Positions 2,308-51,428 are shown, counted from the first letter of the stretch. The stretch: DNA of 64,000 bases from a virus (IMGVR_UViG_3300025924_000017:64001-128000), one strand, 5' to 3'. The notes: a model not told the origin generated them from the sequence alone. Numbers and translations: made by a program.

Positions 2308-2340
2308 GCCATAATTCTTGACACTTTCCCCGATACATGA
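2308..2340 (+). promoter_or_regulatory. Promoter-like site upstream of portal
   Basis: GCCATAATTCTTGACA, a member of a motif family repeated before many genes. Confidence 0.5.
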
Positions 2341-2458
2341 GATGCCAATGTCTCACGTTGTGCCGTCGCTTTGTTCGTCGCCGCAACGTTCTTTCGTCTG
2401 TGACAACTCCAAGGCGGCGCGCGGTCAAAAACGCGTTCCGCCTCCTTTCCCAAAGCCG

Positions 2459-29148: not shown

Positions 29149-29224
29149 ACCGGTTTAGCTCAGCGGTAGAGCGGTGGTCTCCAAAACCACGTCTGCGGAG
29201 GTTCGATCCCTTCAACCGGTGCCA
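29149..29224 (+). tRNA. tRNA-Trp(CCA)
   Basis: Full cloverleaf, loop CTCCAAA, encoded CCA. Confidence 0.9.
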
Positions 29225-29339
29225 GATTGCGAGTGTGTGGGGACGCACAGAGTCGTGCCTCGCCGGGACGACGGCCAGAAATGGATCACGAGTGCACGAG
29301 CGGGCTGATACCGCCACGTTGCTCCGGCCTCGCAAAGCT

Positions 29340-29414
29340 ATCGGTGTAGCTCAGTGGTAGAGCGGCGGCTTCCAATCCCGCGCGTCGGTGGTTCGATTCC
29401 ATCCACCTTTGCCA
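29340..29414 (+). tRNA. tRNA-Trp(CCA)-like with defective acceptor stem
   Basis: Normal D, anticodon (TTCCAAT) and T arms; two acceptor mismatches; CCA end. Confidence 0.55.
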
Positions 29415-29502
29415 ACTTGACGGCCCGTGAAAACGGTGACCGCCGCCCCGGGGGCAACCCCTCGAAGTACAAGAGACACGTATAGTCTCCGGGGAGAAAT
29501 AC

Positions 29503-29576
29503 GCGGGTCTGGTCTAGTGGCTGGGCCTCGGAGTGCCACTCCGATGAAGTCGGTTCGATCCCGGCGACCCGCACCA
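29503..29576 (+). tRNA. tRNA-Gly(GCC)
   Basis: Cloverleaf, loop GTGCCAC, CCA. Confidence 0.85.
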
Positions 29577-29580
29577 AATT

Positions 29581-29657
29581 GCGGCTGTCATTGATAATAG
29601 GCAGTCAGCCAGCCTTCCAAGCTGGAAGTACCGGATCGTCCCCGGTCAGCCGCTCCA
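29581..29657 (+). tRNA. tRNA-Gly(TCC)
   Basis: Loop CTTCCAA, T loop ATCGTCC, CCA. Confidence 0.8.
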
Positions 29658-29856
29658 TTGTGTGCCGGTGTCTCTTGCTTCGGCGCGTGCGGTCTAGCCG
29701 ATCTGCACGGCCCTATGTTACGCACCGCTCCCTGCCCATCCACGCTCCGCAAGGCTTTACGGCGGTCGGTGTGGAATGGGTTCGCTGGAGGGGAGGCGCT
29801 GGACGGCCCAGCAGGGGAGGCGTGGGCAACGTCAGCCGCAAAATCTTCGAGGATCG

Positions 29857-30495
29857 ATGTCACACTACCCCAACTTCGGTATTCCTGCCGTCTACGTCGA
29901 TCCAAGCATCGTCAGCTTCACGGCGACACCGGCGCTCGCCGAGTTGGGCAGCACCGTCGATAGCGTTGTCCTCCGCTGGGACATCGCGAAGCAGCCGCTC
30001 TCGCTAATCGTTGACGGCGCAACGCTACCGCTGAACACACTACTCGTCACCAAAGAAGGCCCATTCACGACCAACCAGTCTTGGTCGATGAAAGCAGGCG
30101 ACGCCGAAGAGACGTTGACCGCGAAGACGACTCTTCAATTCGTCAACAAGCTCTACTCCGGTTTTGTCACCAGCGCGCCGACCAACAGCGCCGGTATTCT
30201 TGCGCTCGAAAACAGCACACTCAGCACCACACGCCAGTCGTCCGCGCAGATTGGCGCGCCAGCCGGTAAAGTTTGGTGCTACGCATATCCGAAGCGTCTC
30301 GGCACTGTGAAGATCGCGCGCGAAATTCCGAGCGGCGTGTGGGTGCCGACGACGTTGACCCAGAGCATGGTGTCCGGTACCGACTACACTGTCAGCGTCG
30401 TGTCATTCACGAATGCCTCCGGTTATACCGAGGATTATAACGTCGTGACCTTCAGCAATCCGCAGCCTGACAACACCGTGCTGACCTTCGGTTAG
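29857..30495 (+). CDS. Virion-like beta protein inside tRNA region
   Basis: ATG 29857; C-terminal half resembles C-terminus of ORF 54285. Confidence 0.7.
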   Translation: MSHYPNFGIPAVYVDPSIVSFTATPALAELGSTVDSVVLRWDIAKQPLSLIVDGATLPLNTLLVTKEGPFTTNQSWSMKAGDAEETLTAKTTLQFVNKLYSGFVTSAPTNSAGILALENSTLSTTRQSSAQIGAPAGKVWCYAYPKRLGTVKIAREIPSGVWVPTTLTQSMVSGTDYTVSVVSFTNASGYTEDYNVVTFSNPQPDNTVLTFG

Positions 30496-30505
30496 CACAT
30501 AATCG

Positions 30506-30532
30506 TTGACAATACCGCCGCGATGTGCGACA
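30506..30532 (+). promoter_or_regulatory. Promoter-like motif before leader 1
   Basis: TTGACAATACCGCCGCGATGTGCGACA. Confidence 0.6.
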
Positions 30533-30540
30533 ACCCCAAT

Positions 30541-30627
30541 ATGACGACTGTTCTTACCACGTCTGTCCTTCTTTCTCCCCGTGAGCTTGAACGCTCGACG
30601 GGTCGAGATATGCACGTCGTCGCCTAA
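30541..30627 (+). CDS. Putative leader peptide 1 (MTTVLTTSVLLSPRELERSTGRDMHVVA)
   Basis: 28-aa ORF between promoter motif and Glu/Asp tRNAs; stop lies in loop of a long hairpin. Confidence 0.55.
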   Translation: MTTVLTTSVLLSPRELERSTGRDMHVVA

Positions 30628-30669
30628 ACGGCACGACGTAAACTCCGCCCGTCCGAACTCAGCTTCTAT

Positions 30670-30745
30670 CCGGGCATCTTACTATCAGCGAAGTGGACGG
30701 GCTTTCAACCCGTAGAGCCGGGGGCAGCACCCGGTGTCCGGACCA
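30670..30745 (+). tRNA. tRNA-Glu(TTC)
   Basis: Loop CTTTCAA; T loop GGCAGCA; CCA. Confidence 0.8.
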
Positions 30746-30746
30746 T

Positions 30747-30822
30747 GCAAGATTCGTCTAGCGGTCTAGGATACTGGAACCTCACTCCAGTGACATCGGT
30801 TCAAATCCGTTATCTTGCGCCA
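30747..30822 (+). tRNA. tRNA-Glu(CTC)
   Basis: Loop ACCTCAC; TTCAAAT T loop; CCA. Confidence 0.8.
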
Positions 30823-30863
30823 AGCTGATCTCGATCCACCATCATCCGTACACTGAATAACTC

Positions 30864-30940
30864 GGGCGTGTAGCCGTCTGGTTGACGGCACCGGCTTGTC
30901 AAGCCGCCAGAGGCGAGTTCAATTCTCGTCACGCCCGCCA
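30864..30940 (+). tRNA. tRNA-Asp(GTC)
   Basis: Loop TTGTCAA; G73; CCA. Confidence 0.85.
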
Positions 30941-30941
30941 C

Positions 30942-31016
30942 GGTCTGTTCGTCTACCAGCTAGGATACTCGCCTGTCACGCGGGAGGAACGGGGGCAGCA
31001 CCCGTACAGATCGCCA
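30942..31016 (+). tRNA. tRNA-Asp(GTC)
   Basis: Loop CTGTCAC; T loop GGCAGCA; CCA. Confidence 0.85.
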
Positions 31017-31018
31017 CC

Positions 31019-31044
31019 TGTCATGGAAATTATGTTTCATGACA
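31019..31044. promoter_or_regulatory. 26-bp imperfect palindrome (operator-like)
   Basis: TGTCATGGAAATTATGTTTCATGACA. Confidence 0.5.
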
Positions 31045-31128
31045 CGGCCGTAACGTCGCAATTCTTGACTATGATGTCGCAAAGCGCGACAATTCTTGCT
31101 TCCCACAAATTTCCATCGGACTACGACA

Positions 31129-31332
31129 GTGGCGCAAGGCAAGAAGAACTTCATCCAAAAGGCGATCCCCAAGTCCCATCGCGGCGACCTTCACAAGGCG
31201 CTGGGCATTCCCAAGGGCAACATCATCCCGCACGACGTGCTTGAGGCAGCGGCGAAGCGGAAGGGCAAGGTCGGCGAGGAAGCGCGGTTAGCGCTCACCC
31301 TCGAAGGCATGCACCCCAGCGCGAAGAAGTAA
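31129..31332 (+). CDS. Small basic phage protein
   Basis: KNFIQKAI...GDLHKALGIP.G..IP...LEAAAKRKGKVGEEARLALTL pattern. Confidence 0.7.
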   Translation: MAQGKKNFIQKAIPKSHRGDLHKALGIPKGNIIPHDVLEAAAKRKGKVGEEARLALTLEGMHPSAKK

Positions 31333-31335
31333 GCT

Positions 31336-31509
31336 GTGAAGCACCAGAAGACCAAGGCGCCATCGCAGCGCCACCCGCAGGCCAAGAGCCTTCAGAATCT
31401 CCACGGCGCCAACGCGCCCGGCGCCGCATCGGCACAGATGCTTGTCGGCGGCCAGCAGGTTTCCCCAACCGATCCCGGCGTACAGGCGTGCGCAATGACC
31501 GGTAACTGA
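31336..31509 (+). CDS. Small hypothetical protein
   Basis: GTG start after upstream stop. Confidence 0.4.
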   Translation: MKHQKTKAPSQRHPQAKSLQNLHGANAPGAASAQMLVGGQQVSPTDPGVQACAMTGN

Positions 31510-31597
31510 ACATACCTTTCACAGAGGGCATGAGTGTAGGGCCGAAGCAGCGATGCTTCGGCCCTAAACTTTTTCTTGACCACTTTGTTTTGAATTG

Positions 31598-31624
31598 TTG
31601 ACTCGTTGTTCGTAATATGAGACA
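31598..31624 (+). promoter_or_regulatory. Promoter-like motif before leader 2
   Basis: TTGACTCGTTGTTCGTAATATGAGACA. Confidence 0.6.
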
Positions 31625-31669
31625 TACATCCCACACGGTGCTCATTCCGAGCGCCACGAAGGTTTGAAA

Positions 31670-31765
31670 ATGTTCGCAGTGCTTAAATCCAAGCCGAGTA
31701 CACATCTGGCATCCGCCAGCGTGCTGTCGCTCGCCTTGTCGCCTGCGACCACGCCAGCTATCTAA
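31670..31765 (+). CDS. Putative leader peptide 2 (MFAVLKSKPSTHLASASVLSLALSPATTPAI)
   Basis: 31-aa ORF; 26 of 30 post-Met codons are Pro/Thr/Lys/Leu/His/Ala/Ser, the amino acids of the downstream tRNAs. Confidence 0.75.
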   Translation: MFAVLKSKPSTHLASASVLSLALSPATTPAI

Positions 31766-31866
31766 AGCCGCGTCCGCGCGGCTCACGAGCCGCGCTCCAC
31801 CTTCTGAACTCCCCACACCCAGATCAGATCGCAGAGTTCGGCTCCTAAACAGGAGAACGAATACGT

Positions 31867-31942
31867 CTGCGTATAGCTTAGCTTGGTAGAGTACGACCCT
31901 CGGACGGTTGGGGCGGAGGTTCAAATCCTCCTACGCAGACCA
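31867..31942 (+). tRNA. tRNA-Pro(CGG)
   Basis: Loop CTCGGAC; CCA. Confidence 0.9.
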
Positions 31943-32010
31943 AGTTTACGGATCACGTGCGGAGGTTCAAATCCTCCTACGCAGACCAAGTTTACGGATC
32001 ACGTGCGGAG
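31913..32010 (+). repeat. 46-bp tandem duplication of tRNA-Pro 3' end
   Basis: GCGGAGGTTCAAATCCTCCTACGCAGACCAAGTTTACGGATCACGT x2 plus GCGGAG. Confidence 0.9.
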
Positions 32011-32034
32011 ATTCGCACTGAGACGATCTGAATT

Positions 32035-32123
32035 CAGAGTGTCGGGTAGCTTGGCTGATCTCGCCCGGTTTGGGGCCGGGAGTCGAAAGACACACGTTGG
32101 TTCGAATCCAACCACTCTGACCA
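32035..32123 (+). tRNA. tRNA-Pro(TGG), long variable arm
   Basis: Loop TTTGGGG; variable arm with GTC-GAAA-GAC; CCA. Confidence 0.85.
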
Positions 32124-32131
32124 TTTTTAAT

Positions 32132-32206
32132 CAGGCTTTAGCTCAGCAGGAGAGCGCCCGCTCGGGAAGCGGGAGGACGCTGTGGCAGTGACAGCAAGCC
32201 TGACCA
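32132..32206 (+). tRNA. tRNA-Pro(GGG)
   Basis: Loop TCGGGAA; T loop GGCAGTG; CCA. Confidence 0.85.
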
Positions 32207-32281
32207 GTTTCGTGCGGTGTCTGAGCGCTACAAATATCGGGAGACAGAAAAGCGAGACTTCCCGAGCCGCACTTCGAATTC

Positions 32282-32363
32282 GCCGGTTTGGCTCAGCAGC
32301 GACAGCAGCAGTTTTGTAAACTGCCATTCCACATCGGGGGTGCGAGTCCCTCAACCGGCACCA
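32282..32363 (+). tRNA. tRNA-Thr(TGT)
   Basis: Loop TTTGTAA; T loop TGCGAGT; CCA. Confidence 0.8.
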
Positions 32364-32370
32364 TCATCAT

Positions 32371-32445
32371 GCCCTCGAATAAGAGAAAGCGCTTTGCGTC
32401 ATTGGTAGTGACGAGAGGAACGGGCAGGTCGTTCCGGGGGCACCA
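32371..32445 (+). tRNA. tRNA-Thr(GGT)
   Basis: Loop TTGGTAG; T loop GGCAGGT; weak D arm; CCA. Confidence 0.7.
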
Positions 32446-32452
32446 ACAACAC

Positions 32453-32527
32453 GCCGACTAAATTGAGATAGCGTAAGACCGGACTCGTAATCTGGTAGGG
32501 GTGGCGCAAGTCCACCAGTCGGCACCA
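32453..32527 (+). tRNA. tRNA-Thr(CGT)
   Basis: Loop CTCGTAA; CCA. Confidence 0.8.
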
Positions 32528-32542
32528 AATCAAATCGAATAT

Positions 32543-32632
32543 GCGCTGGTGACCCGAGTAGCGAAGGGCTGAGACTCTTAATCTCATGATCTAAAAAATC
32601 CATCGCGGGTGCGAGTCCCGCCCAGCACACCA
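32543..32632 (+). tRNA. tRNA-Lys(CTT), long variable region
   Basis: Loop CTCTTAA; CCA. Confidence 0.8.
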
Positions 32633-32637
32633 ATTGA

Positions 32638-32731
32638 GCGCCGGTGACCCGAGAAGCGAAGGGCCGGGACTTTTAATCCTGTTTGGTGTTCAACACCATC
32701 GTCGTGGGTGCGAGTCCCACTCGGCACACCA
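32638..32731 (+). tRNA. tRNA-Lys(TTT), long variable arm
   Basis: Loop CTTTTAA; TGGTG-TTCAA-CACCA arm; CCA. Confidence 0.8.
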
Positions 32732-32741
32732 GTTTCAGTTT

Positions 32742-32825
32742 GGCCCTATGGCGTAATAGTAGGCGCGCTGGCTTCAGATACCAGTGTCTTTGGACGTGGG
32801 GGTGCAAGTCCCTCTAGGGCTACCA
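32742..32825 (+). tRNA. tRNA-Leu(CAG)
   Basis: Loop TTCAGAT; type II; A73. Confidence 0.85.
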
Positions 32826-32830
32826 AATTT

Positions 32831-32915
32831 GCTCCCGTGGCGGAACGGTAGACGCGCTCCCCTTAAAGCGGAGTGACCTCGTGTCGTGGGAGTTCGATTC
32901 TCTCCGGGAGTACCA
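32831..32915 (+). tRNA. tRNA-Leu(TAA)
   Basis: Loop CTTAAAG; type II. Confidence 0.85.
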
Positions 32916-32924
32916 GAAGAATTT

Positions 32925-33011
32925 GTCCGGCTGATCGGAATCAGTAGACGTGCTCGGCTCAAACCCGAGTGCCCTTGTGGCGTAGAGGTGCAAGTCCTCT
33001 GCCGGACACCA
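32925..33011 (+). tRNA. tRNA-Leu(CAA)
   Basis: Loop CTCAAAC; type II. Confidence 0.9.
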
Positions 33012-33015
33012 GTTT

Positions 33016-33099
33016 GCTCTTGTGGCGTAAAGGTAGGCGCGTTGGTTCGAGAAGCCAATGGGTAAAACCGTGGGGGTTCAAGTCCCTCCAAGAGCACCA
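33016..33099 (+). tRNA. tRNA-Leu(GAG)
   Basis: Loop TCGAGAA; type II. Confidence 0.9.
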
Positions 33100-33219
33100 A
33101 GTTGAGTGATCGCAAGCGTTAGGACCCTGTGCTGCTCCACGATGCACTGACAAGGTCTCACGGCGATTGAGAGAGGGCATCTCACGGCGGGTCCGCTCCG
33201 CACCACTCAAACAAAACAT

Positions 33220-33295
33220 GCTGACGTAGGACCTGAGGCTGGGTCGCCTGATTGTGAGTCAGGAGTGAGTGGTTCGATTCCGCACGTCAGTACCA
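33220..33295 (+). tRNA. tRNA-His(GTG), A73 and no G-1
   Basis: Loop TTGTGAG; ends CGTCAGT-A-CCA. Confidence 0.85.
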
Positions 33296-33304
33296 ATTCA
33301 ATTC

Positions 33305-33377
33305 GGGGTGTCCGCGAGGTCCGGACTTGATCTTTGCAAGATCGAAGCGGTGGGTGCGAGACCCACACACTCCGCCA
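33305..33377 (+). tRNA. tRNA-Ala(TGC), short D arm
   Basis: Loop TTTGCAA; G3:U70. Confidence 0.75.
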
Positions 33378-33384
33378 AGTATAT

Positions 33385-33460
33385 GGGCCTGTAGCTCAGT
33401 TGGGAGAGCGCCTGATTTGCACTCAGGATGTCGGGGGTTCAAATCCTCTCAGGTCCACCA
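33385..33460 (+). tRNA. tRNA-Ala(TGC)
   Basis: Canonical cloverleaf; G3:U70. Confidence 0.95.
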
Positions 33461-33466
33461 ACATAC

Positions 33467-33553
33467 GGATGCTGAACCCGGCGCGGGCTGGGACTCGCCT
33501 CGAAAGCGATGGGAGCCTCACGGCTTGGAGATCGAGCCTTCCGGCATCCGCCA
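33467..33553 (+). tRNA. tRNA-Ser(CGA)
   Basis: Loop CTCGAAA; long variable arm; G73. Confidence 0.85.
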
Positions 33554-33569
33554 ATCAAATGCGAAGAAG

Positions 33570-33863
33570 ATGAAGAAGATCGGAAAGAGATATCTGGAGC
33601 GAGCGCAATACTACCGACGTCTCGCGCACGCTACGTGTCCGACCTTGGACTTCTCCGATGAGGCGCTGCGCCGCTGCTACGAATGGGAGAGCCACGGTGT
33701 GCGCTGTAGCGATCCAGACAACGGATACATGACAGGCAAGTCGCTCGTGAACCTGAATGTCGCAATGTGGAAGGAAGACATCGTTCGCGGAACGCTTTTT
33801 CTGTTCGAGTTGCGTGAGGACCCTGACATTCCAGAATGGGTCTTGAAGAATTTCGGAGAGTGA
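33570..33863 (+). CDS. Hypothetical protein inside tRNA array
   Basis: MKKIGKRY...; stop overlaps 5' end of next tRNA. Confidence 0.6.
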   Translation: MKKIGKRYLERAQYYRRLAHATCPTLDFSDEALRRCYEWESHGVRCSDPDNGYMTGKSLVNLNVAMWKEDIVRGTLFLFELREDPDIPEWVLKNFGE

Positions 33864-33946
33864 ACCGAGCAGGGATGCCGGGCGCGTTTGCTAAACGATG
33901 CGGAGGCCGAAAGGCTTTTTCGGATCAAGACCGACGCTCTCCTCCA
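33855..33946 (+). tRNA. tRNA-Ser(GCT)
   Basis: Loop TTGCTAA; long variable arm; CCA. Confidence 0.8.
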
Positions 33947-33951
33947 GTCAT

Positions 33952-34043
33952 GGATGCTTGGCCGAGTGGCTTAAGGCGGCGGATTTGAAATCCGCAGGAC
34001 CTCACGCGAGGTTCCGTCCGTTCAAATCGGACAGCATCCTCCA
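33952..34043 (+). tRNA. tRNA-Ser(TGA)
   Basis: Loop TTTGAAA; long variable arm. Confidence 0.9.
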
Positions 34044-34113
34044 ATCTAGGGCCTAGCGCAGCGCAACGTCGCGGGAAGGGTGAGAGGGTAGCGTCGCGGC
34101 TACCCGCGTAATT

Positions 34114-34205
34114 GGAGAGTGAACCGGACACGCGTGCCGGGCCTGCTTGGAAAGCAACGCGGACGGTGCAAGCCGTTTGGGGCGCAAGTCCTCCGCTCTC
34201 CGCCA
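34114..34205 (+). tRNA. tRNA-Ser(GGA)
   Basis: Loop TTGGAAA; long variable arm. Confidence 0.8.
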
Positions 34206-34283
34206 AATCGCTTGACACGATCCACGTCAGTGTGCCATAGAATGCGACATCGCGCTTCTGCACCGGCGCGTCGGCCTAACGGC

Positions 34284-34383
34284 TAGGCCGGAGGGTTCGT
34301 CGAAGGGCGGAGAGGAGCAGGCTACGAGCCTGCGACCACATTGGTCTGAAAATCCGCCGCCCTGCGATCAACCCTCCGGCTAT
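34284..34383 (+). ncRNA. Candidate structured ncRNA
   Basis: 11-bp closing stem GCCGGAGGGTT/AACCCTCCGGC enclosing three further helices; TTGACA at 34212. Confidence 0.45.
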
Positions 34384-34398
34384 CAATTTTGGAAGTCG

Positions 34399-34611
34399 AT
34401 GTCACCTGAAGCTCTCACTCTGATCGCTAAGCTCCACGAAGCCCGCGACAAGCAAAACGCACCCCACGCGATCTACGCAACCGATAGGCCTGAGATGCTG
34501 GCGCTCGTTGCCGAACTCGTTGAACACGGTTATCTCGTCAAGCGTGTGCGTCGGGAAGTCGATCCTTTCGATTCCTACATGACAACTGACAAGAGCCTCC
34601 CAAACGCATGA
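34399..34611 (+). CDS. Hypothetical protein
   Basis: ORF track. Confidence 0.6.
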   Translation: MSPEALTLIAKLHEARDKQNAPHAIYATDRPEMLALVAELVEHGYLVKRVRREVDPFDSYMTTDKSLPNA

Positions 34612-34805
34612 GGCGGCGCAAGTCTTTTCCAGAACTCGAAGCGCGCGAGCGCGCGATCCGTGACAGCGACCACGCGCGGATAGCTCGGGGTTTGGAGCCG
34701 ATCCGCTGCCCACGATGCGGAGAGAACGCTTCGCACTTCTTCCCACCCTGTTTCGGCGACCCCGGCTTTTGGACGTGCGTCGGTGTCATGGTACCAGCCA
34801 CATGA
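34608..34805 (+). CDS. Small zinc-finger-like protein
   Basis: CPRCG...CFG...WTC; ATGA coupling. Confidence 0.55.
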   Translation: MRRRKSFPELEARERAIRDSDHARIARGLEPIRCPRCGENASHFFPPCFGDPGFWTCVGVMVPAT

Positions 34806-35023
34806 CGTGCAGCACCGCCAGACGCTACCAATACCTGAACGTCATCACCGACACCGGCGAGCGCAAGGTCTTGCGTGTCTCCGACGCCACCATGCGCCGC
34901 ATCACCGAAGCCGCCCACAAGGCTAAGAACCCGACGATCTGGCAGCGGATCGTGCGGGCGTTTAAGCGCGTCTTCGCATCTGTCGCGGATCGTGTCACAG
35001 CAGGGTTGACAAAACGACGCTGA
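34802..35023 (+). CDS. Hypothetical protein
   Basis: ATGA coupling. Confidence 0.55.
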   Translation: MTCSTARRYQYLNVITDTGERKVLRVSDATMRRITEAAHKAKNPTIWQRIVRAFKRVFASVADRVTAGLTKRR

Positions 35024-35062
35024 GCGGATATGCCGGGTCTTCGCCATGTGAAGGACCCGACA

Positions 35063-36904
35063 ATGCTTGACGCCCAGACCCTCGACCTCTTCAAGGTCAT
35101 TGTTCTCGACGAGTTTGCTGTGCCGCCGGAAGGGCTGAGCGCAAAGCCGTATCTGGAAGACCTCCAGCAGGGCTTCGTCACCAATTTCATCCCGACGCCC
35201 CTTCAGAGGGCCGCACTCTGCAAGGCGTTCAAGCCGCTTCCGCTGGTGACGCTGTTTTCGGTCGCCGAGCGCCGGGCGCCCGACATCACTCCGATGTCGC
35301 TGATCATGACGCAGCTTCTCCACTACATCGAGGTCTACGGCCTCGACCAGCCGGGCTTGTTCAATCTCGAAGTCAAGCAGGGTAGCGTCGTGGTTGTCGC
35401 CAACGTTCGCGGCGTGACGGTCGAGGAACTTGGCGACATGGTCCGCGCCCTGATCTACGCGAACGCGCCGGTCCGCAAGATCGAGGACGTGATCGAACTG
35501 ATCAAGTTCCACAACATTCCTTATGACCTCGCACTCGTGAAGAACAACGAAGCGCGCATCCGCTTGTACCGGGACGGCGATCAGTTTGCGTCCGGAGACG
35601 ACGCTGTCCGCTACATCGTCTTCAAGACGACCGGCGACTCGCTCCTGATCAAGTCCCCGGAAGTCGTCGCAGCCGTGAAGTCCGGCGAGCGACAGGTTTC
35701 GTTGCACTTCCTGATGGCGCACGAGACGGTCTTGGCGCAGGTGTTCAATCGCCACAAGCGCATCATCATGGCGTTGAAGAACCGGCGCACGGCACAGGCG
35801 ATCAACCGCATTTCGCGCTTCTCGAAGACGAAGCACGTCCCGCTCCGTCCGGCGCTCAACAAGACTTTCATCGCCCGCGCGCTCGGCGATCTGCCGTTCG
35901 ACTACGAGGACGCGCTGGAGGTCATCTCCCTGCGCGACAAGTTCAAGTACCTGAACCTGCTCGAATGGCGCCGCTTGCAGAATACCGATGACGTGTTCAT
36001 CATCCGCAACGGCCGCGCGCATTTGGAGCCGGATCGTAAGGTCTACCCCACCAAAGACATCACGGCGCTCATTATGAGTGTTGCGGACTCGATTGAGGCT
36101 GATCTGCGACATCTGCAAGGCAAGTCGATCCTGCTCGATCCCAATGTCGATTATGGTCTGCCGACCTCCCAGAAGCAGATGCTCGGCAGCCTGCCGTTCG
36201 GCACCACGATCTCGGTCGGTAACGGGAACATCTCGTCCGGCATCTATTGGGAGAACCGTTGGGGCGCGACCGATCTCGATCTGGCAGCCATCGACGAGTG
36301 GGGCGAACGCACCGGCTGGGGCGAGTTGTCCGGATTCGACAATAACAATCCGATCCTCTTCTCCGGCGACATCACGTCGGCACCTGAAGGCGCCATGGAG
36401 TTCATGACCTCGGCGACGACGGATTGTGAGCGCGTCTACGGACTGCTGGTGAACATCTTCAACGGGGGTAACGAGGCCGAATGCGAACTGCTCGTCGGCT
36501 CCCAGTTCGAAGGCAAGAACGGTCAGACGCGTTCCGGGCGATCCGCGAAGTGGATCAAGTCGCCGGTGATCCGGGAGAAGGTGAAGCTCACCTCTCGCGA
36601 GACGATCCTCGGCTTCGTACGGAACGGGAAGTTCGTCGTGTTCGCCCCGCGCCTGTCGAACCGCCGTGTGTCCGGCGGCGAGATCACGCGCCGTTTGATC
36701 GCGAAGGGCATGGCGCCGGTCTGGACGATCAGCAAGCTGCTCGCCGTTGCGGGAATCAAGTACGACACGACACCCGTTGACGGTGTTGTCTACGATTACG
36801 ATCTCTCGTACGCGTCGTTTTGTGTTGACAAAATGGAGCGCATGTTGTTCAATCCTCAGCAGGTTACGCCGCAAAAGACGTTCCTTACAGAAACAGCGGC
36901 CTAA
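35063..36904 (+). CDS. TerD-domain-containing stress/RNA-associated protein (putative)
   Basis: QLLHYIEVYG N-terminal motif; GIYWEN...DLDLAA...W...ILFSGDITSAPEGAMEF resembles TerD fold; AAGGA RBS. Confidence 0.6.
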   Translation: MLDAQTLDLFKVIVLDEFAVPPEGLSAKPYLEDLQQGFVTNFIPTPLQRAALCKAFKPLPLVTLFSVAERRAPDITPMSLIMTQLLHYIEVYGLDQPGLFNLEVKQGSVVVVANVRGVTVEELGDMVRALIYANAPVRKIEDVIELIKFHNIPYDLALVKNNEARIRLYRDGDQFASGDDAVRYIVFKTTGDSLLIKSPEVVAAVKSGERQVSLHFLMAHETVLAQVFNRHKRIIMALKNRRTAQAINRISRFSKTKHVPLRPALNKTFIARALGDLPFDYEDALEVISLRDKFKYLNLLEWRRLQNTDDVFIIRNGRAHLEPDRKVYPTKDITALIMSVADSIEADLRHLQGKSILLDPNVDYGLPTSQKQMLGSLPFGTTISVGNGNISSGIYWENRWGATDLDLAAIDEWGERTGWGELSGFDNNNPILFSGDITSAPEGAMEFMTSATTDCERVYGLLVNIFNGGNEAECELLVGSQFEGKNGQTRSGRSAKWIKSPVIREKVKLTSRETILGFVRNGKFVVFAPRLSNRRVSGGEITRRLIAKGMAPVWTISKLLAVAGIKYDTTPVDGVVYDYDLSYASFCVDKMERMLFNPQQVTPQKTFLTETAA

Positions 36905-36995
36905 AAAGCCGCTCCTAAAATACGTCTCGCGGTTTTCGATTTTGTTGCAAAGGGTGTTCCTTAAAAACCCTTCTATGGCAAACACACCCCGCAAC
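36869..36995 (+). ncRNA. Tandem pair of similar multi-branch RNA structures
   Basis: AGACGT/ACGTCT and GGGTGT/ACACCC stems each enclosing a TCCTTA..AAAC loop plus hairpin. Confidence 0.45.
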
Positions 36996-37007
36996 GCTCT
37001 CTGCGAG

Positions 37008-37040
37008 AGGCCATCCGAAAGGATGGCCTTTTGCATTTTG
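37008..37040 (+). terminator. Intrinsic terminator
   Basis: AGGCCATCC-GAAA-GGATGGCCT then T-rich run. Confidence 0.85.
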
Positions 37041-37044
37041 TTTC

Positions 37045-37071
37045 TTGACACGACTGCCGTGATATGAGACA
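37045..37071 (+). promoter_or_regulatory. Promoter-like motif before leader 3
   Basis: TTGACACGACTGCCGTGATATGAGACA. Confidence 0.6.
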
Positions 37072-37080
37072 ACCTTCTCC

Positions 37081-37179
37081 ATGAGCAAGACCTTTACCAA
37101 CGTGCAGCAAGTCGTCCGCCGGAATCGCTATATTCCGGGCGGGGCTTTCGCGCGTGTGGAGAAGGATCACGGGTTCTAA
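37081..37179 (+). CDS. Putative leader peptide 3 (MSKTFTNVQQVVRRNRYIPGGAFARVEKDHGF)
   Basis: 32-aa ORF; codons 7-18 all match downstream tRNAs; overlaps antiterminator strand. Confidence 0.8.
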   Translation: MSKTFTNVQQVVRRNRYIPGGAFARVEKDHGF

Positions 37180-37247
37180 ACCCAAAAGCTCTCCAAAGTT
37201 CTGCGAAAGGCCCGCCCGGTAAGCTCCGAGCGGGCCTTTTGCTTTTT
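37137..37247 (+). promoter_or_regulatory. Transcription attenuator (antiterminator/terminator)
   Basis: 37137-37151 GGGCGGGGCTTTCGC pairs (14/15) with 37203-37217, overlapping terminator AAAGGCCCGC/GCGGGCCTTT + T run. Confidence 0.8.
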
Positions 37248-37256
37248 GCCTTTCAC

Positions 37257-37342
37257 GCGGATGCGAACGAGAGGCGAGCGATTGACGGTCTGTAAAACCG
37301 TTGCCTATGGCTGAATGGGTTCAATTCCCATCATCCGCACCA
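37257..37342 (+). tRNA. tRNA-Tyr(GTA)
   Basis: Loop CTGTAAA; long variable arm. Confidence 0.9.
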
Positions 37343-37378
37343 AGGCAAAAACGAGAAGGTACGCAAGGAGAAGAATTT

Positions 37379-37455
37379 GCTTCGGTAGCTCAGTTGGTAA
37401 GAGCGCTGGCTTGAAATCCCAGAGGTCGATGCGTCGAGTGCATCCCGGAGCACCA
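37379..37455 (+). tRNA. tRNA-Phe(GAA)
   Basis: Loop TTGAAAT; T loop GTCGAGT. Confidence 0.85.
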
Positions 37456-37460
37456 TACAC

Positions 37461-37536
37461 AGTCCGTTAGCTCATTCAGGAGAGCGCTGGTGTCACATAC
37501 CAGAGGCGCACGGGGCAGAGCCGTGACGGACTACCA
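37461..37536 (+). tRNA. tRNA-Val(CAC)
   Basis: Loop GTCACAT; T loop GGCAGAG. Confidence 0.85.
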
Positions 37537-37540
37537 GCTT

Positions 37541-37616
37541 CCACCCGAGGCTGACTAGTGAGGCGGGCACCTGATTAGTGCCGTCAAGGTGAGTGCGATC
37601 CTCACCGGGTGGTCCA
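37541..37616 (+). tRNA. tRNA-Ile(GAT)
   Basis: Loop CTGATTA; T loop TGCGATC; atypical T37 and T73. Confidence 0.7.
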
Positions 37617-37654
37617 GTTTTCAGATCAGCGATGGAGATTCGTCGCTGGTTTTT

Positions 37655-37730
37655 AGTCCGATAGCTCATTCAGGAGAGCGCCGCTGTGACATGGCGGAGG
37701 TGCGCGGGGCAGAACCGCGTCGGACTACCA
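37655..37730 (+). tRNA. tRNA-Val(GAC)
   Basis: Loop GTGACAT; T loop GGCAGAA. Confidence 0.85.
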
Positions 37731-37736
37731 AATCAT

Positions 37737-37813
37737 TCTCCGTTAGCTGGTCGGTCTGGCCGCTGGGCTCTGAACCCGGAAAGAAGAACGTTCGAATCGT
37801 TCGCGGAGAGCCA
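37737..37813 (+). tRNA. tRNA-Gln(CTG)
   Basis: Loop CTCTGAA; U1:A72, G73. Confidence 0.85.
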
Positions 37814-37818
37814 AACAT

Positions 37819-37894
37819 TGCCCGTTAATTGCTAGGTGCGGTCGCCGGGTTTTGACCCCGGTAGGAAAAGGTTCGAATCCTTTGCGGGCATCCA
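37819..37894 (+). tRNA. tRNA-Gln(TTG)
   Basis: Loop TTTTGAC. Confidence 0.85.
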
Positions 37895-37900
37895 GAACAT

Positions 37901-37985
37901 TCCCTTCTGGCGGAACGAGTAGACGCGCTGCACTGTTAATGCAGTATCGAAAGATGTGCAGGGGCGGAGCCTGCGGAGGGAGCCA
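37901..37985 (+). tRNA. tRNA-Asn(GTT), type II-like body
   Basis: Loop CTGTTAA; Leu-like D arm GGCGGAACGAGTAGACGC; long variable arm; T loop GGCGGAG. Confidence 0.8.
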
Positions 37986-37994
37986 ATCAAATTT

Positions 37995-38070
37995 TGGTGT
38001 GTAGCTCAGTCGGCAGAGCGGCGGATTGTTAATCCGAAGGTCGCAGGATCGTACCCTGCCACGCCAGCCA
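37995..38070 (+). tRNA. tRNA-Asn(GTT)
   Basis: Loop TTGTTAA; G73. Confidence 0.85.
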
Positions 38071-38076
38071 AATTAT

Positions 38077-38158
38077 AGTCGCGAAGTGCTGAATGGAACG
38101 GAGGCAACGCACTACGAATGCGTAAACCCTGTGGGTTCGAGTCCCACCGCGACTACCA
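38077..38158 (+). tRNA. tRNA-Arg(ACG)
   Basis: Loop CTACGAA. Confidence 0.8.
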
Positions 38159-38165
38159 GTTTTGA

Positions 38166-38241
38166 CGTGCCGTCGCCTAAAGGTAAGGCCCTTCGCTCAT
38201 AACGACAGTGTATGTGAGTTCGATTCTCACCGGCACCACCA
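38166..38241 (+). tRNA. tRNA-Met(CAT)
   Basis: Loop CTCATAA; C1:C72 mismatch; weak anticodon stem. Confidence 0.7.
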
Positions 38242-38244
38242 AAT

Positions 38245-38327
38245 GGCCCCGTAGCTCAGCGGACAGAGCGCCGGTCTTCTAAGCCGGGAAATCAACGTCG
38301 GGGGTTCGACTCCCTCCGGGGCTTCCA
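38245..38327 (+). tRNA. tRNA-Arg(TCT)
   Basis: Loop CTTCTAA. Confidence 0.9.
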
Positions 38328-38333
38328 GATCAC

Positions 38334-38408
38334 AGCCGCGTAGCTCAACGGAAAGAGCGCCAGTTTCCGAAACTGAGGATCGGTGTTCGATTCACCGCGC
38401 GGCTACCA
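38334..38408 (+). tRNA. tRNA-Arg(CCG)
   Basis: Loop TTCCGAA. Confidence 0.9.
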
Positions 38409-48800: not shown

Positions 48801-51428
48801 TACGGTCACCTCGGCGAAAACGAGTCCAGCGACAAGAACACACTCGAAGGTTTGTTCAAGGTCGGCGGCATCCACATCGATCCGCAGAAGGTCGCGTGGT
48901 GTGCGGCGTTCGTGAACGCGGTTCTCGCTTCAAACGGTGTCGCCACGACCGGCAAGCTCAACGCGTCGTCGTTCCAGAATTATGGTGAAGCCGTCAAGTC
49001 GCCGCATCAGGGTGACATTGTTGTCCTAAAGCCGCAGGTGGCGGGCGACACCGGTCACGTCGGCTTCTTCTCCGGCTTCAATGGCGACGGCTCCGTCAAC
49101 GTTCTTGGCGGTAATCAGAACGACAGCGTCTCGATCAAGAACTTCGCAGCCAATCAGGTTGTGGGTTATCGCCGACCGAACCAGATCGGCGTCGCAGGCT
49201 CGCAAGCGGCTTTGATGAATGCGCAAGGATCGCTCAGCGACCAAAGTCAGGATGAGACGGCGCCCGGCGGCATCGGTGCGCAGCCTACCGAGTCTGACGC
49301 CGACAAGATCGCGCGCATGCGCCTCATGGAATACAAGCAGATCGAGTCGTTCGCAGCAGGTGCGAGCCCGGCTGCGGGTGCGCTGGCGCAGGATCAAGAA
49401 CGCCTCTCGAACATCGCCAAAATCATTCAGGCCGAGCAGGACAACATCAAGAAGTTCGGTGGCGAGTACAAGACCGTGTTTGCCGGTACGCTGGGCGACC
49501 TTGATGCCGCCGAAGTGAAGTATCAGCGCGACCTTAAGGATGCCGTCGATCCTATCGGCAAGGTGAACCGTCTGGCGTCTCAGGCGAACGACATCACCGC
49601 GCTCCGCGTGAAGGGTCTGACTGACGAAGCGGATTGGCAGGAAAAGCTCAACGCTCTCATTGAGGAGGGCTACGACCGTCGCAAGGTCGATACCGCCGCC
49701 GCAAAGGCACAGTTCTTGGCGGAGAAAGATCGCACCGACACGTTGAAGGCGCAGATCGAACTCCAGAAGACCTTGAATGATGCGGAAGCTGCACGTTCTG
49801 CGCGCACTTCCAACAACGCGGTCGCCAACCTCGTCAATGCACAAATTCTTGCACACGCCCAGCCCGGTGAGACGCTGGCGCAGGCACGGGAGGCTCAGGC
49901 CAACCAGATTCCGTACTACACGCGGGGTGCACAGGCACAGTTCAATGAAAATCGCTCAGCCTCTATCCAAGGTCTGGGTGAGGAACTGGATGTTCTCGGT
50001 CAGGGCCAAGGTCTGAACCCGACGCAACGTGCCTATCAGGACAGCTACATCAAGGCCCTGCAAGGCATGACAGGCCTCAGCACGTCGTCACTGGCGCGCT
50101 TGAGCACCGCCGCGTCAGACGCCGACAAGAAAATCGCTGCGAGCTACGCGCAATTGAAGCAGGAGCTTGAGAACCCGCCGGGCTTCCAGCGCTGGGTTGA
50201 CAGCCTTGAGCCGATCTCCAAGCGCATGGAAGACATCAAGGCGAACTTTGCCGAGGGTCTTTCGAGCACGCTGACCGACATCGCGGTTGGCGATGCGAAG
50301 CCCGGCGCTGCGTTCAAGCAGCTTTTCGACGACATCCGCAAGCAGGTCGTCAAGGCGCAGATGGATAACGTGCTGGGTAGCCTGTTCAAGGGCCTCGGCC
50401 TCGCACAATCGCCGGAGCAGACGCAGGCGCAAGCGGCGACGACCTTCTCGTCCGCATCTGACACGTTCCAGACCTCGGTCTCGGTGTTCGCACAGAGCGT
50501 TGGCGCGCTCGGCGGCGCGGCAGGTGTTCCGACAGGAGCGCTCGCGGGCGCGACGTCGGGTATCGAACCCGTGAACGTGACACCGCAGACGATCCTCGGC
50601 TCTGGCCTTGGCTCCGGTACCAGCGACTCCGGGCTGGAGTCCGTGAACGTCACGCCGAACATCTTCGGTCAGTATTCGAACGGGCTCACAACGCCGCCGG
50701 TCGCGACGAACGACAACAACCAAGGCTTCTTCGGTAGCATCGGCTCGATGTTGGGTCTTTCGGGCAGCGGCAACCAGACCGGCGGTATCGGCAACTGGCT
50801 GCTGGGCGGCCTCGGTATCGCCGGTGGCCTTCTCGACAAGCTGTTTAGTCCGGCGGCGAAGCCGACGTACCACAATCCGAACGGCATCATCGGCACGATG
50901 TCCACGAACACGGTCAACGCCGTGCATCAGGATGGGCAGGCCAATATCCTCGGCTCGATCCTGAATCTGTTCGCACAATCGGCGATTGGCAAGAGCGGGC
51001 AGAGCGGCGGCTTCCTCAACAACCTGTTGAGCGGGACCGGCGGCGGCGCAGGCTCGACTTCATCCTCGATCCTGAGCTTCCTCTCAGGCATCTTCAAAGA
51101 GGGCGGTTATTCGACCCAGCCGGTCATGAGCCAAATGGTGAGCGCCCGCACGTTCCGCGACGCGCCGCACTTCTCCGAAGGCGGCATCACGAGCGGTATC
51201 CCGATCATCGCGCACCCGAACGAAGCCGTGATCCCGCTCAGCCGTGGCCGCAAGATTCCGGTCGAGATGAACGACAACATGGCGCCGTCCTTCAACGTGT
51301 CCTCGAACATCACCGTCATCGCCCCCGACCCCGATGCGTTCCGCAAGTCGCGCAACTCCATCCAGCGTCAGCAGAACCGCGACATGAAGCGGGCTGCGAC
51401 CCGGAACCTGATCACTTCGACCCGGTAA
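45852..51428 (+). CDS. Tape measure protein with internal NlpC/P60-like (TIGR02594-type) domain
   Basis: 1858 aa Ala-rich; KGVVYSKEFNRQIG tape-measure motif; AWCAAFVN...GDIVV...GHVGF...LGGNQ; EAVIPL C-terminus. Confidence 0.95.
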   Translation: MDQNLSVKFDSSQSRADLDALSKSLDKTSTAADRFDKSVSKATTNVNASLTKAAQSMEKYAQVAALLSKIKTVGNPAGQIIELGKALDALGRARAMPATKVQSIRDLTRALNTLGSLRAPSVATIDRFERLLGVLSSAKEMPGAARIAAQLDTITASATRAAHALAAMPGGGRNLFSAGGGPRGGGGPGAGSITRIASETENAARRSKASFSIMGSGLDNLTGRFRLNYQAYTLFSTMFASFTMGQFVRSLYDANIQLLKLQKALLFATGTFSGAEEATSAFIGISQKLGLSIKDNIDTYGRFVISATASGLKIKQTNDIYEDLATALTVVGSSAQQQQLAFYGLTEMMQKGVVYSKEFNRQIGAQLPGNAIIGAQALSRLEGHFVSVSEFFKQMHSGTLLSAQFIPEWAKAVREMYGPLLALAQQRPDVAIQRLKNSFFIFAREVGGGKFMSSIGSEMKKLTDMIITGDGANAHLTKSFQHLADTLGQGLGTAIHGLGMGLEFIIKNFDTLFMVMKGFFAFKLAEYFVSISNNVTKAAGSMFKFSSAAQTAAASEAAVASEARAVATQTAVASVASPAANEAAALNVLSFGRRAPASTFQQARPNAPRAFGLNSVNDLPLFNWANQQEAAAARRRTFTSSGSSVSGVALRQQLFPAAAEAAGPSLIGRVGSGALAGVSTVLSNLGPIAITAATALALVSDKLAGIATNKGNQVTYGDVASGALKSVGDSVEGLLASLGNTFGMFGANSLTLGKTILGLAAVIKATFSLIFDLAHAIGTVLGVAIGGFIAEVISWGKIINDVIHGNITGAMKDYAAGKQQQHGLTGALVNGVNNDIGRIFTSDSIPAIYRQMLANTQGFADEHGGKHVDAASQKQIEAAVQQQAAAQANMRAATLMEDAMAQFNKDSQKLDYGDLRKQIVSLIDGTYARQTLPRGSVGGPLGPPPALRGVVDSGAPVSFAPSGAGSDNSNVMVGTGRALYMTAYGHLGENESSDKNTLEGLFKVGGIHIDPQKVAWCAAFVNAVLASNGVATTGKLNASSFQNYGEAVKSPHQGDIVVLKPQVAGDTGHVGFFSGFNGDGSVNVLGGNQNDSVSIKNFAANQVVGYRRPNQIGVAGSQAALMNAQGSLSDQSQDETAPGGIGAQPTESDADKIARMRLMEYKQIESFAAGASPAAGALAQDQERLSNIAKIIQAEQDNIKKFGGEYKTVFAGTLGDLDAAEVKYQRDLKDAVDPIGKVNRLASQANDITALRVKGLTDEADWQEKLNALIEEGYDRRKVDTAAAKAQFLAEKDRTDTLKAQIELQKTLNDAEAARSARTSNNAVANLVNAQILAHAQPGETLAQAREAQANQIPYYTRGAQAQFNENRSASIQGLGEELDVLGQGQGLNPTQRAYQDSYIKALQGMTGLSTSSLARLSTAASDADKKIAASYAQLKQELENPPGFQRWVDSLEPISKRMEDIKANFAEGLSSTLTDIAVGDAKPGAAFKQLFDDIRKQVVKAQMDNVLGSLFKGLGLAQSPEQTQAQAATTFSSASDTFQTSVSVFAQSVGALGGAAGVPTGALAGATSGIEPVNVTPQTILGSGLGSGTSDSGLESVNVTPNIFGQYSNGLTTPPVATNDNNQGFFGSIGSMLGLSGSGNQTGGIGNWLLGGLGIAGGLLDKLFSPAAKPTYHNPNGIIGTMSTNTVNAVHQDGQANILGSILNLFAQSAIGKSGQSGGFLNNLLSGTGGGAGSTSSSILSFLSGIFKEGGYSTQPVMSQMVSARTFRDAPHFSEGGITSGIPIIAHPNEAVIPLSRGRKIPVEMNDNMAPSFNVSSNITVIAPDPDAFRKSRNSIQRQQNRDMKRAATRNLITSTR

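Follow-up and report, generated by a model that had tools for sequence, protein, structure and literature searches.

The 64,000-nucleotide stretch of viral DNA analysed here (the window; positions 64001-128000 of the 225,611-bp IMG/VR record IMGVR_UViG_3300025924_000017, rated complete by CheckV) carries 40 tRNA genes, all on the plus strand between positions 29149 and 38408 and each with an encoded CCA, and 21 of them (52%) have a T loop without the canonical TTC. These 21 genes probably encode working elongator tRNAs that follow a different plan at the elbow, where D loop and T loop meet. The virus is a phiCbK-like phage, and its portal protein (window 2318-4273) shows ~50% identity to the portal proteins of Dolichocephalovirinae phages, both phiCbK-like ones from Caulobacter and Brevundimonas phages. 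The first-pass annotation of this DNA had put the share of tRNAs without TTC at about half, and the count agrees with that estimate: besides the 19 TTC genes there are seven with GGC[A/G]G loops, nine with TGC or CGC loops, and five with ATC or GTC loops, and every gene that the annotation had named under these three classes is present with the loop described (Table 1).

The departures from the canonical loop are coordinated with changes elsewhere in the molecule. All 40 tRNAs of the window have either T or G at position 55, and among the tRNAs of the genome scoring at least 21, all 13 with G55 have AG at positions 18-19 and all 20 with U55 have GG (Fisher p = 1.7e-9). G55 occurs in 16 genes of the window, with a clear A18-G19 in 14 and an ambiguous D loop in tRNA-Ala 33305. 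Covariation at positions 18 and 19, which the first-pass annotation had proposed as a check, is therefore present, with G55 accompanied by A18, and is joined by a paired change at positions 54 and 58, where the 40 genes have T:A (26), G:G (7), A:U (2), A:A (2), C:A (2), and G:A (1). An eighth G:G tRNA of the genome, a tRNA-Met(CAT), belongs to another, small cluster outside the window (G000:C1:166458-166534; T loop GGCGGAA, D loop AGTCAGACA), and the GGC.G class is therefore not restricted to the main cluster; the G54-G58 share is 8/33 in this genome compared with about 3-4% in the other loci sampled. C56, G19, and a purine at position 57 are retained throughout the tRNAs of the window, and the stems, U33, purine 37, and CCA of the variants are intact. 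The paralogues tRNA-Val(CAC) and tRNA-Val(GAC), which are 84% identical, differ at three stem pairs, all of them compensated. The variants also retain G3:U70 in Ala, C1:G72 with A73 in Pro, G1:C72 with C2:G71 in Thr, and G73 in Asp and Asn, which are identity features known from Escherichia coli. Because the changes are compensated at positions 18/55 and 54/58 and in the stems of the paralogues, the variants are structured tRNAs and not wrecks.

The same coupling can be followed in cultured relatives. The tRNA clusters of phiCbK, Rogue, Bajun, and Bambus are syntenic and share the gene order W G G E D P P T K K L L L (H) S S .. F V I V Q Q N R, by which orthologues were matched, as tRNAs of different types share 66-84% of their sequence and pairwise identity could not tell the orthologues apart. 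The T loops of these relatives are mostly TTCRA, and the TGCGA exceptions number five in Bajun (Leu CAG, Phe, Val GAC, Ile, and Val CAC), three in Bambus (Lys CTT, Phe, and Val GAC), and one in phiCbK (Thr CGT), with A18 in every one of them. For example, the Lys CTT slot holds CAGTGGCGAG with TTCGAGT in phiCbK and CAGTAGCGAG with TGCGAGT in Bambus. Similarly, the Leu CAA slot holds GGAATCGGTAGA (..TCGGTAGA) with TTCAAGT in Bajun and GGAATCAGTAGA (..TCAGTAGA) with TGCAAGT in the window. Neither G55 with GG nor U55 with AG was found in the 14 isoacceptor slots compared, and as no mixed state of positions 18 and 55 occurs in them, the coupled change has arisen on many separate occasions. The G55 share rises from about 1/29 in phiCbK to 3/26 in Bambus, 5/24 in Bajun, and 16/40 in the present phage. 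Three phiCbK tRNA genes (NC_019405.1; locus L006) fall in gaps of the RefSeq annotation, namely Thr CGT at L006 3034-3103 (record 50033-50102; 70 nucleotides, TGCGATC), Thr TGT at L006 3608-3679 (record 50607-50678; 72 nucleotides, ATCGTTA), and Asn GTT at L006 5233-5307; according to the phiCbK genome paper of 2012, Thr tRNAs are absent from all phiCbK-like phages and Asn is present in Colossus only (PMC3556154).

Similar tRNAs are also found far from this group of phages. A T-arm pattern, GGGTGCGAGTCCC-N10-CCA, gave 118 matches in IMG/VR, and 71 of the 85 inspected fold as tRNAs of many types on unrelated contigs, while GTDB, searched with one genome per species, gave at least 120 matches, of which 47 of the 86 inspected fold as tRNAs. 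The whole loci were then scanned with the seed matches removed, which yielded 943 further tRNAs, and in these the covariation between position 55 and positions 18-19 is again present (p = 8e-117 in viral loci and 2e-50 in genome loci). The 54:58 pairs of the pooled 1159 tRNAs are T:A in 941, A:T in 86, G:G in 48, C:A in 47, A:A in 15, and C:C in 12, and G58 is accompanied by G54 in 48/48 and U58 by A54 in 86/91 cases; a purine at position 57 is found in 99% and C56 in 94% of this set. Pairs other than T:A are more frequent in G55 tRNAs than in U55 tRNAs (32% vs. 6%, p = 3e-32). The loops TGCRA, CGCAA, GGCRG, and ATCGT are found again in other loci and are therefore recurring designs that are not peculiar to this phage, with occurrences in at least 26 unrelated loci. 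Some of the 8-kb GTDB loci, chiefly from Verrucomicrobiota assemblies, have 25-30 tRNAs of which nearly every one is G55. Five loci from assemblies labelled Verrucomicrobiota (L203, L205, L178, L162, and L173) carry 20-30 tRNAs in 8 kb each, almost all of them G55, and the G55 share of other arrays ranges from a few percent to 100%. Position 56 also varies in other phage and array tRNAs (T loops TTTGA, TGGGA, and TGAGA), and these sequences suggest a covarying 19:56 pair.

Many of the variants lie beyond the reach of standard tRNA detection. Default ARAGORN reported 28 tRNAs within 29149-38408, and an Rfam search with the tRNA model (RF00005) at the gathering score reported 20 in the window. 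Both methods depend on the T-loop consensus, and a T-loop-agnostic cloverleaf scanner was therefore written, which demands a 7-bp acceptor stem, a discriminator base followed by CCA, a 5-bp T stem with a 7-nucleotide loop, an anticodon arm, and a D arm. Strict settings gave no match on the reverse complement and none in each of 10 shuffled sequences, and under relaxed settings these counts were one and 0-1 per shuffle, respectively. The relaxed scanner recovered 35 tRNAs in 29149-38408, and five weaker genes were added by hand parsing to give the total of 40, of which 35 have the full cloverleaf required by the scanner, including a 5-bp anticodon stem with a 7-nucleotide loop, U33, and a purine at position 37. 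Running ARAGORN with lowered thresholds or with introns allowed added obvious minus-strand false matches, and the scanner with its controls was used instead. The 12 genes that default ARAGORN overlooks include Ile, Tyr, and the two for Val. Of the 21 variants, nine score clearly above the Rfam gathering threshold of 29 bits (e.g., Asn 37995 at 60.4, Phe at 55.8, Thr TGT at 49.2, and Pro GGG at 43.5), and at least 11 of the 21 have no Rfam tRNA match at E <= 0.001. A Cys gene lies in another part of the genome, and with it the 40 tRNAs of the window cover all 20 amino acids; the sole Val, Ile, Thr, Lys, and Phe tRNAs of the set are variants. The tRNA units are bounded by strong terminators at 31537-31566 and 37002-37035, and within them the variants sit 1-10 nucleotides from canonical neighbours (e.g., 30745/30747 and 30940/30942), a layout that leaves no room for separate transcription, so that they are presumably transcribed and processed together with these neighbours.

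The structural reading starts from the elbow of canonical tRNA, in which U55, as pseudouridine (psi55), and G18 are described as universally conserved, with bases 57 and 58 stacking on either side of G18, which bonds to psi55, and with G19:C56 as the exposed elbow face (PMC4810234; PMC7912444). In the 16 tRNAs with G55, an A18-G55 contact would take the place of G18-psi55. Across the 21 variants, the intraloop T54-A58 pair would either be retained or be swapped for G54-G58 (the GGCAG class), A54-U58, C54-A58, or A54-A58. The retained G19:C56 and purine 57 would then form the stacked outer face of the elbow, which is the surface met by the ribosome, RNase P, EF-Tu, and the synthetases. T loops outside tRNA have U or G at their second position, and in riboswitches the pairs of T loop and receptor mostly have a G that faces a donated adenine (bioRxiv 10.1101/2022.12.26.521914). 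In addition, the G-A pairs of GNRA-type loops can be superposed on the pair of U55 with G18 (PMC10484739). Judged by the covariation, the phage tRNAs thus seem to have moved from the tRNA-specific to the generic T-loop contact with the outer face kept.

The variants can be compared with several known systems. With canonical tRNA (RF00005; for example, the phiCbK clusters) they share the cloverleaf, the 7/5/5-bp stems, the 7-nucleotide T loop, U33, purine 37, CCA, G19:C56, and purine 57, whereas 21 of the 40 phage tRNAs depart at positions 54, 55, 58, and 18 and many fall under the thresholds of standard tRNA finders. With the generic T-loop modules of flavin mononucleotide (FMN) and cobalamin riboswitches, RNase P, and rRNA they share the sequence U/x-G-N-R-A, a covarying 1-5 pair, a purine at position 4, and, as the 18/55 covariation suggests, probably an adenine of the partner loop facing G2, but in the phage the module sits in the elbow of a tRNA, its partner is the D loop (A18, G19), and its third position makes the C56:G19 pair. 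A natural tRNA with G55 and without G18G19, tRNAPyl, is still aminoacylated and used in translation (PMC1851642), but it has a 5-nucleotide D loop, a 6-bp anticodon stem, a 3-nucleotide variable loop, and no 19:56 contact, whereas the phage tRNAs have arms of normal size and G19:C56. The only reduced D arm among the variants is that of Ala 33305, and the set falls outside the tRNAPyl-like and mitochondrial types of reduced tRNA. A54 with A58, as in Ser CGA and Ser GCT, is also found in eukaryotic initiator tRNA as a purine-purine Hoogsteen pair, and a 54-58 pair other than T:A is thus tolerated (PMC7912444), but the initiator keeps U55 and G18, and the phage set also has G54-G58 and the swapped A54-U58.

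The first-pass annotation had regarded the unusual loops as systematic remodelling that makes the tRNAs either independent of modification or resistant to host nucleases. Systematic remodelling is supported by the coordinated changes at 18/55 and 54/58, and independence of modification holds in a narrow sense, as the substrate requirements of the enzymes imply that G55 cannot become pseudouridine, that G, A, or C at position 54 cannot become 5-methyluridine (m5U), and that A18 cannot become 2'-O-methylguanosine (Gm18); such tRNAs must therefore work without these marks. Selection may favour this independence, and the likeliest benefit would be folding and function without the host enzymes that read the T loop (TruB, TrmA or TrmFO, and TrmH) during a burst of phage tRNA synthesis. 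Searches of the phage genome with the Pfam families for TruB, Ro60 (TROVE), and the CCA-adding enzyme (PolyA_pol) gave no match.

The strongest rival explanation, although one that we regard as rather unlikely, is neutral compensated drift, in which the variants work but gain nothing from their alternative elbows because phage tRNAs, which evolve fast and are less constrained, wander among a few workable combinations of T loop and D loop. The wide spread of the G55 share, both among the related phages and among other arrays, fits this explanation, as do the lack of any association between T-loop class and amino-acid type and the coexistence of canonical and variant copies with the same anticodon (Asp, Asn, and Ala). 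Drift acting independently on each isoacceptor would hardly produce the arrays of 15-30 tRNAs that are almost or wholly G55 (24-30 of every 25-30 genes; L203, L205, L178, L045, and L059), and the far more frequent loosening of the 54:58 pair in G55 tRNAs suggests a change of constraint shared by them. The nearly uniform G55 arrays and the loosening of 54:58 after loss of U55 therefore both point to a shared change in constraint.

Several points nevertheless weigh against the variants being working tRNAs with an elbow on a different plan. The mixed composition of many arrays fits neutral turnover equally well, Ser GGA (34114-34205) is the one exception to the A18 rule, and in four variants (Ser GGA, Ser GCT, Ala 33305, and Gly TCC) the anticodon arm or the D arm is imperfect. 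In the large sets, position 18 was assigned by rule and not by alignment, and the loci in these sets were found with a pattern containing G55 and therefore do not measure the overall frequency of the feature. In addition, no close relative was found, and recent selection on these genes is consequently not measurable. A search with the 624-amino-acid open reading frame inside the cluster (35030-36901) gave just a 46%-identical locus without tRNAs in IMG/VR and a 35% match in metagenomes, the portal protein gave nothing in IMG/VR, and distant blastn of the cluster against phage records returned generic tRNA matches only. A pattern for the Lys D arm retrieved only phiCbK-type phages with G18 and one unrelated phage.

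A bolder proposal holds that the A18-G55, G54-G58, and A54-U58 elbows are a second, selected tRNA design, which phages and mobile arrays carry because host factors that recognise the T-psi-C loop are unable to read it (modification enzymes with a role in quality control, or a nuclease of defence or takeover, still to be discovered, that targets the elbow), and that the present phage is half-way through converting its set. This proposal is unlikely, but if it were true, T54, psi55, A58, and G18 would owe much of their 'universal' conservation to recognition by enzymes and not to the needs of folding.

Doubtful is the explanation that the variants form a protected pool which evades a reader of the T-psi-C loop or elbow, such as a defence nuclease, a tRNA-modifying toxin, or a phage factor that disables the host tRNAs. 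The phage encodes a full-length RtcB RNA ligase outside the window (G000:C1:211068-212237, minus strand, 435 bits), which fits tRNA damage during infection and gives the sole, faint hint of conflict over tRNAs, and the escape of phage tRNAs from tRNA nucleases by point changes is an established theme (PMC12409363). Resistance to host nucleases as such finds no support, since the nucleases located in the same source cut the anticodon arm, AriB of PARIS in the stem and PrrC in the loop, and PARIS is active without psi55 (PMC12409363). The tRNA-Lys of phage T5, which is likewise phage-encoded and off the host consensus (PMC12409363), is changed at the anticodon-arm site that PARIS cleaves, whereas the changes described here lie in the elbow, for which no matching nuclease is known. 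No nuclease candidate came up in this phage, though none was searched for, and half of its tRNAs keep TTC, including the sole copies for Trp, His, Tyr, Gln, Arg, and Met. No nuclease is known to cut the T loop. The open reading frames adjoining the RtcB gene gave no informative Pfam match except a PRA-PH (MazG-like) domain.

That the variants are decaying pseudogenes, or tRNA-like RNAs outside translation (decoys or processing signals), is barely credible, for although 4/21 have imperfect arms and at least 11/21 are absent from the Rfam matches, their stems, U33, purine 37, CCA, and identity pairs are intact, they are needed for coverage of the 20 amino acids since they supply every Val, Ile, Thr, Lys, and Phe tRNA of the set, and the compensated changes at 18/55, at 54/58, and in the stems, with the recurrence of the same designs in relatives and unrelated arrays, effectively exclude decay.

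Natural and coordinated replacements of U55 and G18 allow the question of why the T-psi-C loop is universal to be asked in terms of folding versus enzyme recognition. No description of A18-G55 or of a U55G change in tRNA or phage tRNA was found in the open literature, although subscription journals lay outside the search and an earlier account is possible. In vivo selections from D-loop/T-loop libraries in the Steinberg laboratory have reportedly shown that alternative elbows can be functional. Phage tRNA inventories are also corrected, as default ARAGORN gives no Val or Ile tRNA here and misses Tyr and the RefSeq record of phiCbK lacks two Thr genes and one Asn gene. The variants would, in addition, be natural scaffolds for engineering tRNAs independent of TruB, TrmA, and TrmH. 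Since one to five G55 genes are found in cultured relatives, namely phiCbK, which grows on Caulobacter, and Bajun and Bambus, which grow on Brevundimonas, the question is open to bench work.

Table 1. tRNA genes of the window, with variant genes listed singly and canonical TTC genes grouped by position.
Gene	Position	Strand	T loop	D loop	Other features
tRNA-Gly(TCC)	29581..29657	+	ATCGTCC (A54 U55 C56 G57 U58)		odd D/anticodon junction; Rfam 29.2 bits
tRNA-Glu(TTC)	30670..30745	+	GGCAGCA	TATCAGCGAA (A18 G19)	missed by default ARAGORN; no Rfam match listed
tRNA-Asp(GTC) copy 2	30942..31016	+	GGCAGCA	ACCAGCTA (A18 G19)	
tRNA-Pro(GGG)	32132..32206	+	GGCAGTG	AGCAGGA	C1:G72 and A73 retained
tRNA-Thr(TGT)	32282..32363	+	TGCGAGT	AGCAGCGA	variable region 11 nucleotides
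tRNA-Thr(GGT)	32371..32445	+	GGCAGGT	AGAAAGCG	
tRNA-Thr(CGT)	32453..32527	+	CGCAAGT (C54 G55 .. A58)	AGATAGCG	Rfam 35.9 bits
tRNA-Lys(CTT)	32543..32632	+	TGCGAGT	GAGTAGCGAA	variable arm 18 nucleotides
tRNA-Lys(TTT)	32638..32731	+	TGCGAGT	GAGAAGCGAA	variable arm 22 nucleotides
tRNA-Leu(CAG)	32742..32825	+	TGCAAGT	AATAGTAG	
tRNA-Leu(CAA)	32925..33011	+	TGCAAGT	GGAATCAGTAGA	
tRNA-Ala(TGC) copy 1	33305..33377	+	TGCGAGA		short D arm; G3:U70 present
tRNA-Ser(CGA)	33467..33553	+	ATCGAGC (A54 U55 .. A58)	GG retained	
tRNA-Ser(GCT)	33855..33946	+	ATCAAGA		bulged anticodon stem
probable tRNA-Ser(GGA)	34114..34205	+	CGCAAGT	neither GG nor AG	weak anticodon stem
tRNA-Phe(GAA)	37379..37455	+	GTCGAGT (G54 U55 .. 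A58)	GG retained	
tRNA-Val(CAC)	37461..37536	+	GGCAGAG	ATTCAGGA	missed by default ARAGORN; no Rfam match listed
tRNA-Ile(GAT)	37541..37616	+	TGCGATC	ACTAGTG	
tRNA-Val(GAC)	37655..37730	+	GGCAGAA		
tRNA-Asn(GTT) copy 1	37901..37985	+	GGCGGAG	Leu-like D arm AACGAGTAG	variable arm 13 nucleotides
tRNA-Asn(GTT) copy 2	37995..38070	+	ATCGTAC (swapped A54 .. U58)	GG retained	
tRNA-Trp; tRNA-Trp; tRNA-Gly(GCC)	29149-29224; 29340-29414; 29503-29576	+	TTC		
tRNA-Glu(CTC); tRNA-Asp(GTC)	30747-30822; 30864-30940	+	TTC		each 1 nucleotide from a variant neighbour
tRNA-Pro(CGG); tRNA-Pro(TGG)	31867-31942; 32035-32123	+	TTC		
tRNA-Leu(TAA); tRNA-Leu(GAG); tRNA-His; tRNA-Ala	32831-32915; 33016-33099; 33220-33295; 33385-33460	+	TTC		interleaved with variants
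tRNA-Ser(TGA)	33952..34043	+	TTC		
tRNA-Tyr(GTA)	37257..37342	+	TTC		missed by default ARAGORN
tRNA-Gln(CTG); tRNA-Gln(TTG)	37737..37894	+	TTC		
tRNA-Arg(ACG); tRNA-Met(CAT) (38166-38241); tRNA-Arg(TCT); tRNA-Arg(CCG)	38077..38408	+	TTC		

Other features of the cluster concern canonical and variant genes alike. Long variable arms are found on tRNAs that normally belong to class I, including both Lys genes (32543-32731), Pro TGG (15 nucleotides; 32035-32123), Asn 37901 with its Leu-like D arm (37901-37985), Arg ACG (38077-38158), and Arg TCT (38245-38327); the long-arm Lys pair is kept in phiCbK (L006 3141-3324), Rogue, Bajun, and Bambus and the long-arm Asn in Bajun and Bambus. The tRNA-His gene has no encoded G-1 and has A73, and the unannotated His gene of Rogue also has A73. 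A tRNA-His of this kind is the type of many Alphaproteobacteria, which fits an alphaproteobacterial host and kinship with phiCbK-like phages. At 31913-32014, a 46-bp unit is repeated in 2.2 copies with 98% identity and carries a second copy of the T arm, the 3' strand of the acceptor stem, and the trailer of tRNA-Pro(CGG), so that the 3' half of a tRNA stands alone as an orphan. Two spacers without tRNAs inside the cluster fold strongly, 33100-33219 (120 nucleotides, -38 kcal/mol) and 34208-34400 (193 nucleotides, -90.9 kcal/mol). In a separate 247-kb IMG/VR phage contig (L016, 1016-1092), a well-folded tRNA with the anticodon CTA, a possible amber suppressor, lies near canonical Lys, Leu, and Asp tRNAs.

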